Source of the DNA: Eledone cirrhosa
Lineage: Eukaryota
Direction: 5' to 3'
DNA: 64,000 nt
Assembly: GCA_964016885.1 (NCBI GenBank)
Contig: OZ024747.1
Span: 91,574,001-91,638,000, forward strand
The notes under the pieces were generated by a model that was not told the origin of the DNA, ran no database searches, and saw nothing but the letters and a program-made list of their open reading frames with translations. Numbering within the stretch: the first letter of the stretch is position 1; each line of letters begins with the position of its first letter. Both the position numbers and the translations under genes were made by a program. Below, piece by piece: positions 23,757-23,950 of this stretch.

Positions 23757-23950
23757 AGGAAAATGTCTAACTCCGACGGCTGAGCTCAAGCCGTTTCGAC
23801 GGCTATTTCTGGACTCCAGAAATAGCCGTCGAAACAGCTTGAGCTCTGCCGTCGGGTTTAAACATTTTGCTATTACCCACTCTACTACCCTAAGTATTGA
23901 GTACTCTGGTGCGTTATGGTCCATCTAGTTCCTTACCACAATTCCTTCGT
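23757..23950 (+). mobile_element. Family X fold-back element inverted at HHR stem II
   Basis: Palindrome 23757-23871 centred at 23814; ..gccgtc-GAAAC-agcttgagctctgcc-GTC; tail to 23950. Confidence 0.85.

Follow-up and report, generated by a model that had tools for sequence, protein, structure and literature searches.

The window analyzed here, a 64,000-nucleotide stretch of Eledone cirrhosa DNA, carries a short insertion at positions 23757 to 23950, flanked by a (TC)n(TA)n target microsatellite on the left (23657 to 23756) and by a (TA)n run on the right (23951 to 23962). Positions within the repeat, named family X, were counted from its pLTR end (E), with A23872 as -1. The insertion begins with an inverted, untailed arm on the minus strand (23757 to 23815), extending from E to -59/-60, which is joined head to head to a direct arm on the plus strand (23815 to 23872) spanning -58 to -1. 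The direct arm leads into a 78-nt tail on the same strand (23873 to 23950), whose end would be a second RT start site. The arms meet at GGAC/TCC (23814 to 23817), with T23815 common to both; C23816 could alternatively be a cap-derived C, the two readings being indistinguishable in this copy. The direct arm corresponds to the 3' half of a hammerhead, including, all on the plus strand, the stem II 3' strand (23820-23828), the GAAA (23831-23834), stem III (23834-23852), a predicted cleavage site after C23853 and the stem I 3' strand from 23854. Positions 23757 to 23871 are palindromic around C23814 (TCTGGA-C-TCCAGA), with a self-match of 88.9% over 117 nt. A preliminary description had placed this inversion at the apex of stem II; the palindrome and its center hold, but the apex does not, since native stem II is long and has two parts, and position 23814 falls on its 3' side, where the 3' strand of helix IIa follows about 7 nt further 3'.

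Three further pieces of the family were found in the window. In the second copy (1237 to 1356, plus strand), the arms join through the palindrome of loop III, GAGCTC (1264-1269), and the sequence from 1237 to 1296 is palindromic around a center within this motif (90% over 60 nt), in agreement with the inversion at the stem III apex proposed before. Its tail (1298-1356) is the one present in the 23757 copy, also on the right, with 19 nt deleted. The third copy (15749 to 15830, minus strand) and the fourth (42938 to 42988, minus strand), a lone arm without a tail that ends at about -52, belong to the same family, as had been suggested. Nevertheless, the third copy is a fold-back and not the native 16-bp stem II hairpin it had been taken for, as uninverted copies show a different loop sequence 5' of TCCAGAAATAGCCGTC; it comprises an inverted arm (15749-15806, to -59), an 8-nt linker (15807-15814) and a short direct piece (15815-15830). 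The sequence fused to it on the right is a fragment of an unrelated LINE encoding a LINE-type RT (15832 to 15948, plus strand), which from its motifs we take to be RTE-like. A single (TA)n site, 15749-15948, holds a chimera of a PLE fold-back and a LINE RT fragment, which may result either from a template switch between two retroelement RNAs or from a deletion between neighbors. All four window copies are devoid of the 5' half of the hammerhead core.

Genome-wide, a 22-mer from the tail has 30,176 exact matches in 3.0 Gb, compared with 0 for the reversed control. Upstream, longer copies pass through a UTR of about 850 nt before reaching an ORF that carries RT and GIY-YIG motifs, and in a tandem copy (L235) the tail continues into the 5' UTR and then into the ORF. 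Open frames of 695 and 710 aa carry YRDD and VIY..YIG motifs. A single ORF with RT plus a GIY-YIG nuclease at its C terminus (domains named by motif only) is the arrangement of EN+ Penelope-like elements (PLEs), and the partial tandem pLTR, inverted 5' copy and one-sided tail of such elements are seen in the L235 tandem and the long palindromic loci. Hydra-clade elements are described as having DKT, RWK-like, CxxC and CxH motifs, a CxCX5C linker, no CCHH and a (TA)n target (PMC8557442). The L226 frame presents DKT, CxCX5C, YIG, CxxC and CxH, with RWR replacing RWK, and CCHH is absent. Judged by these motifs, family X corresponds to the pLTR end of a PLE of the Hydra clade whose ORF encodes RT and GIY-YIG. 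The ORF has 638 relatives at E<=1e-20, with no informative name among the 120 listed, and Pfam and PDB sequence searches with the ORF and four relatives returned no match naming the protein. As in the Hydra clade of EN+ PLEs, family X combines a (TA)n target, a hammerhead in the pLTR, an inverted 5'-truncated copy and a one-sided tail; unlike what the accessible text on that clade describes, its tail measures about 78 nt instead of 30-40, its hammerhead has a U3-A8 core and a long stem II instead of the canonical HHR, and most of its insertions are leader palindromes of about 140-200 nt (PMC8557442). Elements of this class are already known, as are inverted pLTRs, tails and U3-A8 cores.

The predicted ribozyme is a hammerhead of type I whose core has U3-A8 (TTGANAAG). 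The order along the pLTR end, taken from 43 uninverted copies, is stem I, TTGANAAG, a long stem II in two parts, GAAA, stem III closed by a palindromic loop, GTC and again stem I, whose end coincides with E. The earlier assignment of GAAAC, stem III and GTC is upheld, but the CUGANGA expected 5' of gacggcta was searched for and is absent; the core is TTGANAAG, which lies upstream of E at a distance of about 100 nt. A strict core pattern is matched by 3,303 arms. Three helices surround the core: when 36 pairs were scored across 20 copies, 90.3% of cells were paired, compared with 32-49% in slid controls; these 20 copies contain no compensatory change, and the pairing is evidence of conservation only. 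Minimum free energy folds recover the structure partly. The core pair of the same 20 copies is U3-A8 in 16, U-G in 1 and C-A in 3, canonical C3-G8 being absent, and core position 7 varies freely. Scanned against Rfam, the window gave 213 matches, mostly microsatellite noise, and none of the 150 that were listed was to a hammerhead family. U3-A8 hammerheads are known from Schistosoma PLEs, and family X shares with the Cercyon PLEs this covariation of the core within the pLTR; however, the Cercyon hammerheads are described as minimal, whereas in family X stem III is 5 bp long and bears a palindromic loop, stem I consists of two parts, and so does the long stem II (PMC4209133). We also observed a subfamily with a C3-A8 mismatch (CTGAGAAG; L060, L113, L115 and further listed arms) and a U3-G8 subfamily (L070, L191), both of which, from the core sequence, may represent natural activity variants. 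Stem III is recurrently deleted between two AGCCGTC direct repeats in the loci listed from contig C1. In the window, GAAACGGCTT occurs on the plus strand within 21670-21800, followed by CTGAAGAG at 21725 and beside a TA run, possibly another hammerhead-bearing fragment.

To locate the junctions, fold-backs were counted genome-wide. Those joined near -60 number 12,007 loci, with 0 for the reversed-pattern control, and those joined at the stem III apex GAGCTC number 155, the two patterns being of similar but not equal stringency. Since the counts differ to this extent, the 23757 copy represents the common class of junction and the 1237 copy a rarity. The preliminary description had proposed hairpin-primed inversion at the ribozyme helices, which these counts do not support: the inversion points are not spread over the helices, and the main junction lies away from any helix apex. 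Its view of the inversions as independent genomic events is upheld, with junctions that vary among loci. The same counts show that the structure is neither chance nor an assembly artefact; opposite-strand joints are also present in contigs from two public runs of a single sample, possibly the one that was used for the assembly.

Next, arm ends were called in a sample chosen by tail sequence alone, namely 100 tail matches taken in order along contig C1, of which 99 are distinct and all lie within its first 23 Mb. Ten tails were without an anchor and nine were long, leaving 80 callable short tailed arms. These end at -53..-64 in 53 cases, at -45..-52 in 4 and at -65 in 2, while 21 end nearer E than -45, some of them miscalled through internal deletions. 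Genome-wide exact matches fall from 46,814 at -56 to 27,871 at -60, 10,952 at -64 and 5,917 at -91; after correction for a divergence of 2-5%, the loss per base amounts to about 8-19% before -64 and 1.4-1.9% after it. Summed contig depth, which is not a measure of copy number, falls more than tenfold at the same stop in two public runs of one sample. The stop is not strict: many short arms extend as far as -61..-65, and the AATT loop near -70 is the joining point of a few.

Whether short or long, insertions follow one layout, consisting of a TA run, an untailed inverted arm, a tailed direct arm and a TA run. A TA run follows 89 of the 99 sampled tails, and the inverted partner arm bears a tail in 1 of 81 cases. 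The lengths of the two arms are paired, with 75 short-short, 5 long-long and 1 mixed combination (Fisher p=2e-7) and 18 arms without a partner, and the longer arm can be either the inverted or the direct one. The subfamily base is identical on both arms in 32/32 callable cases, and a variable loop agrees between arms in 22/32, compared with 145/992 between insertions. Linkers at the junctions are often copies of nearby sequence, and templated linkers are a trait of microhomology-mediated end joining. By eye, the stem III AGCCGT served as microhomology in about 12 of 100 listed short-arm junctions; the ribozyme helices serve only as occasional microhomology. Short-arm junctions at -19, the predicted cut, account for about 13 of 100 listed, compared with about 10 over -22..-28 (by eye, with microhomology ambiguity), and a G-run may cause this excess. 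A linker GGAC-GCA, for which no template was identified, recurs in about 10 of 50 loci listed.

The stop itself has features of a transcription start. Position -60 is the A of T(T/C)AGT, which is initiator-like by comparison with the initiator (Inr) consensus. Where both arms reach -60, the linker is flanked by C...G in 270 loci and by the control T...A in 3. About four fifths of the first 50 C...G junctions can, by eye, be read equally well as templated linkers; about 10 of these 50 have no templated alternative, which when scaled up is still far above 3. Single-base linkers before A-60 are G in 54 loci and A in 5, compared with G in 5 and A in 3 before C-57, a non-start control that is small (n=8; Fisher p=0.048). 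The base after -59 in 100 listed arms was, by eye, C in 33, G in 45 and A in 22, so that C is not dominant, and T at -59 is not a like-for-like control. The sequence TTC-G-AGTCC could be a slip product. In full-length L1 insertions, an extra G is described as the mark of cap copying (PMC11702581). Because the arms share their stop and often carry an untemplated G, a known mark of cap copying, the palindromes appear to stop at the RNA start, and, as read from the junction sequences, A-60 is likely the capped start of the element's RNA. For ends past -60, a second start at A-64, untemplated A's or copies of the 3' pLTR must be invoked.

Three further lines were tried and set aside. As a cap test, TATATA+GAGTCC (34 loci) is compromised by the TAG, which may begin a tiny inverted arm, and A-64 is ambiguous in that native C-65 mimics the cap base. 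For a spliced first exon, no recurring sequence was seen upstream of the G, although the T(T/C)AG motif also fits a 3' splice acceptor. In Penelope, the promoter is described as lying inside the pLTR with an Inr (PMC2377424), and the start in D. virilis would be upstream of the ribozyme as deduced from the accessible text of PMC2377424 and PMC4209133, whereas that of family X is placed inside it.

The stop was replicated in a sister PLE family (seen at L008, L014, L069, L087 and L301-L335) that adjoins several loci and one 35-mer of which has about 9,800 exact matches. Its core is the canonical CTGATGA, its ORF is homologous (46-58% identity in the better matches), and it shares the one-tailed design and the extra-G signature. 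Here the junction, found at 323 loci, falls on the A of CCAGATT, 5' of CTGATGA and of the whole catalytic core, and the arms pass stems II and III. The next cDNA base, tallied by eye in 37 of the first 50 loci (13 were dropped for ambiguous single-base linkers), was C in 51, native G in 18, A in 5 and T in 0. As the same stop with an extra G occurs at a different position of the ribozyme, the stop is not tied to a ribozyme helix. In both families it lies at a pyrimidine-A-G start-like site about 60 nt from E.

Taken with the layout described above, these insertions are probably head-to-head short copies of the pLTR end made in (TA)n by twin priming on the 5' leader of the mRNA. The GIY-YIG nuclease would cut both strands of the (TA)n target. 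One DNA 3' end would then prime RT at E, which at the 23757 site would be the left end giving the inverted arm 23757 to 23815, and the other would prime where the tail ends, some 78 nt further 3'. Each cDNA would be copied toward the RNA 5' end and run off at A-60 of T(T/C)AGT, where the RT would often add a C opposite the cap. Host end joining would finally fuse them head to head, with trimming, microhomology and templated linkers, and use of the same two sites in the 3' pLTR of a read-through RNA would account for those long palindromic insertions that contain ORF sequence. More speculatively, the leader would carry only half a ribozyme, because the proposed start falls inside hammerhead stem II, and the whole ribozyme in the 3' pLTR would cut 19 nt upstream of both start sites, limiting full-length copying from either.

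Twin priming could also operate with a stop of another kind, namely RT stalling or nuclease cleavage at stem IIb, or else the boundary of a splice acceptor. The stop does coincide with the 3' strand of the distal helix IIb (-63..-57), ends spread to -65, and T(T/C)AG with upstream pyrimidines resembles an acceptor. However, independent stalling would leave arm lengths uncorrelated whereas they co-vary, the extra base is specific for G and for position, the recurring exon-1 sequence that splicing should have left upstream of the G was not found, and the sister family stops at a different position of its ribozyme, which makes this reading unlikely.

Somewhat less probable still is self-priming, by hairpin or snap-back, of one cDNA or antisense RNA at palindromes or ribozyme helices, which has been proposed on an antisense template for Penelope (PMC3846280). 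It would explain the perfect palindromic junctions at GAGCTC (155 loci), at AATT in loop II and at the stem III AGCCGT, and self-copying also predicts the subfamily markers common to both arms. Nevertheless, junctions at helices or palindromes are a small minority, and one cDNA snapping back cannot yield two arms that extend to one common end and are separated by an extra base and a linker, nor does it agree with a longer arm that may be either one. Moreover, E is exactly where the inverted arm stops and also occurs as a free 3' end in direct copies, and the sister family joins 5' of its ribozyme core. A purified PLE protein is described as cutting and extending both strands and initiating RT from two internal positions that flank the tail (PMC11167929); with this activity, the shared design, the paired lengths, the subfamily match and the linkers, twin priming is favored over antisense self-priming. 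A fixed MITE- or SINE-like non-autonomous palindrome amplified as a unit, considered as a MITE in the preliminary description, would suit the constant outer termini, TA flanks and very high copy number, but it is refuted for the bulk of loci and scarcely credible for the family, as junctions differ from copy to copy with no fixed interior between terminal inverted repeats, the tail is one-sided and the sequence is contiguous with an RT and GIY-YIG ORF.

Twin priming on the capped leader has parallels in known systems. As for Poseidon PAc of Anolis in vitro, two RT start sites would bound a tail at the pLTR-ORF junction, and both strands of an AT-rich target would be cut and extended; the PAc tail lies within the ORF, whereas that of family X is in the 5' UTR, and the accessible account of PAc contains nothing on inverted arms, the run-off point or cap copying (PMC11167929). 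L1 twin priming likewise uses the other DNA end to prime a second cDNA, with an end-joined inversion and a cap G, but its second primer is described at variable internal sites, so that the arms copy different parts (PMC11702581). In family X, by contrast, neither putative start site varies, and the two arms are copies of one and the same 60 nt. The inverted pLTRs of Adineta vaga and of D. virilis Penelope resemble those of family X in their head-to-head repeats, junction palindromes or overlaps and Inr-like motif; in the accessible text they are ascribed to antisense self-priming, with the question left open (PMC3846280, PMC2377424), whereas the family X counts favor twin priming on sense RNA.

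The origin of inverted pLTRs and one-sided tails in PLEs is named as unresolved in the accessible parts of PMC3846280 and PMC8557442. As a broader and more tentative proposal, about which we remain somewhat doubtful, PLEs might integrate by obligatory twin priming, with palindromes that record transcription starts and a 3' hammerhead that brakes transposition. If true, priming would start from two fixed RNA sites, most events in this genome would go no further than the capped 5' leader, and tens of thousands of palindromes would preserve in DNA where transcription of each family starts and perhaps also where the ribozyme cleaves. The family X promoter would start inside the hammerhead, leaving only the 3' ribozyme whole, and cleavage by the latter, 19 nt upstream of both RT start sites, would take away the sites that full-length copying requires and in this way brake autonomous transposition. 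The counts join the two start sites and two-strand extension seen in vitro to genomic products and argue against antisense self-priming. They further predict capped ends at -60 and a dependence of long insertions on ribozyme inactivity, would account for a large class of MITE-like palindromes as by-products of PLEs, and indicate how PLE start sites might be read from nothing but DNA. A search of the accessible literature returned no paper that derives PLE inversions from cap-terminated twin priming, and the accessible parts of 10.64898/2026.07.22.740005, PMC8969392 and PMC13282606 do not address the junctions.

Other features were observed in passing. An open frame at 15191-15652 (plus strand) has a weak C2H2 zinc-finger match below the Pfam cut-off. 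Positions 54000-64000, about 10 kb of uniform composition with a pronounced AT skew and, on the minus strand, numerous long open frames, are probably a tandem array; one of these frames had no Pfam match. Finally, the RTE-like LINE also gives inverted insertions in TA/TATC runs (L033, L039, L042, L045), with one outer end constant and variable junctions, which may reflect either its own twin priming or mobilization by the PLE protein.
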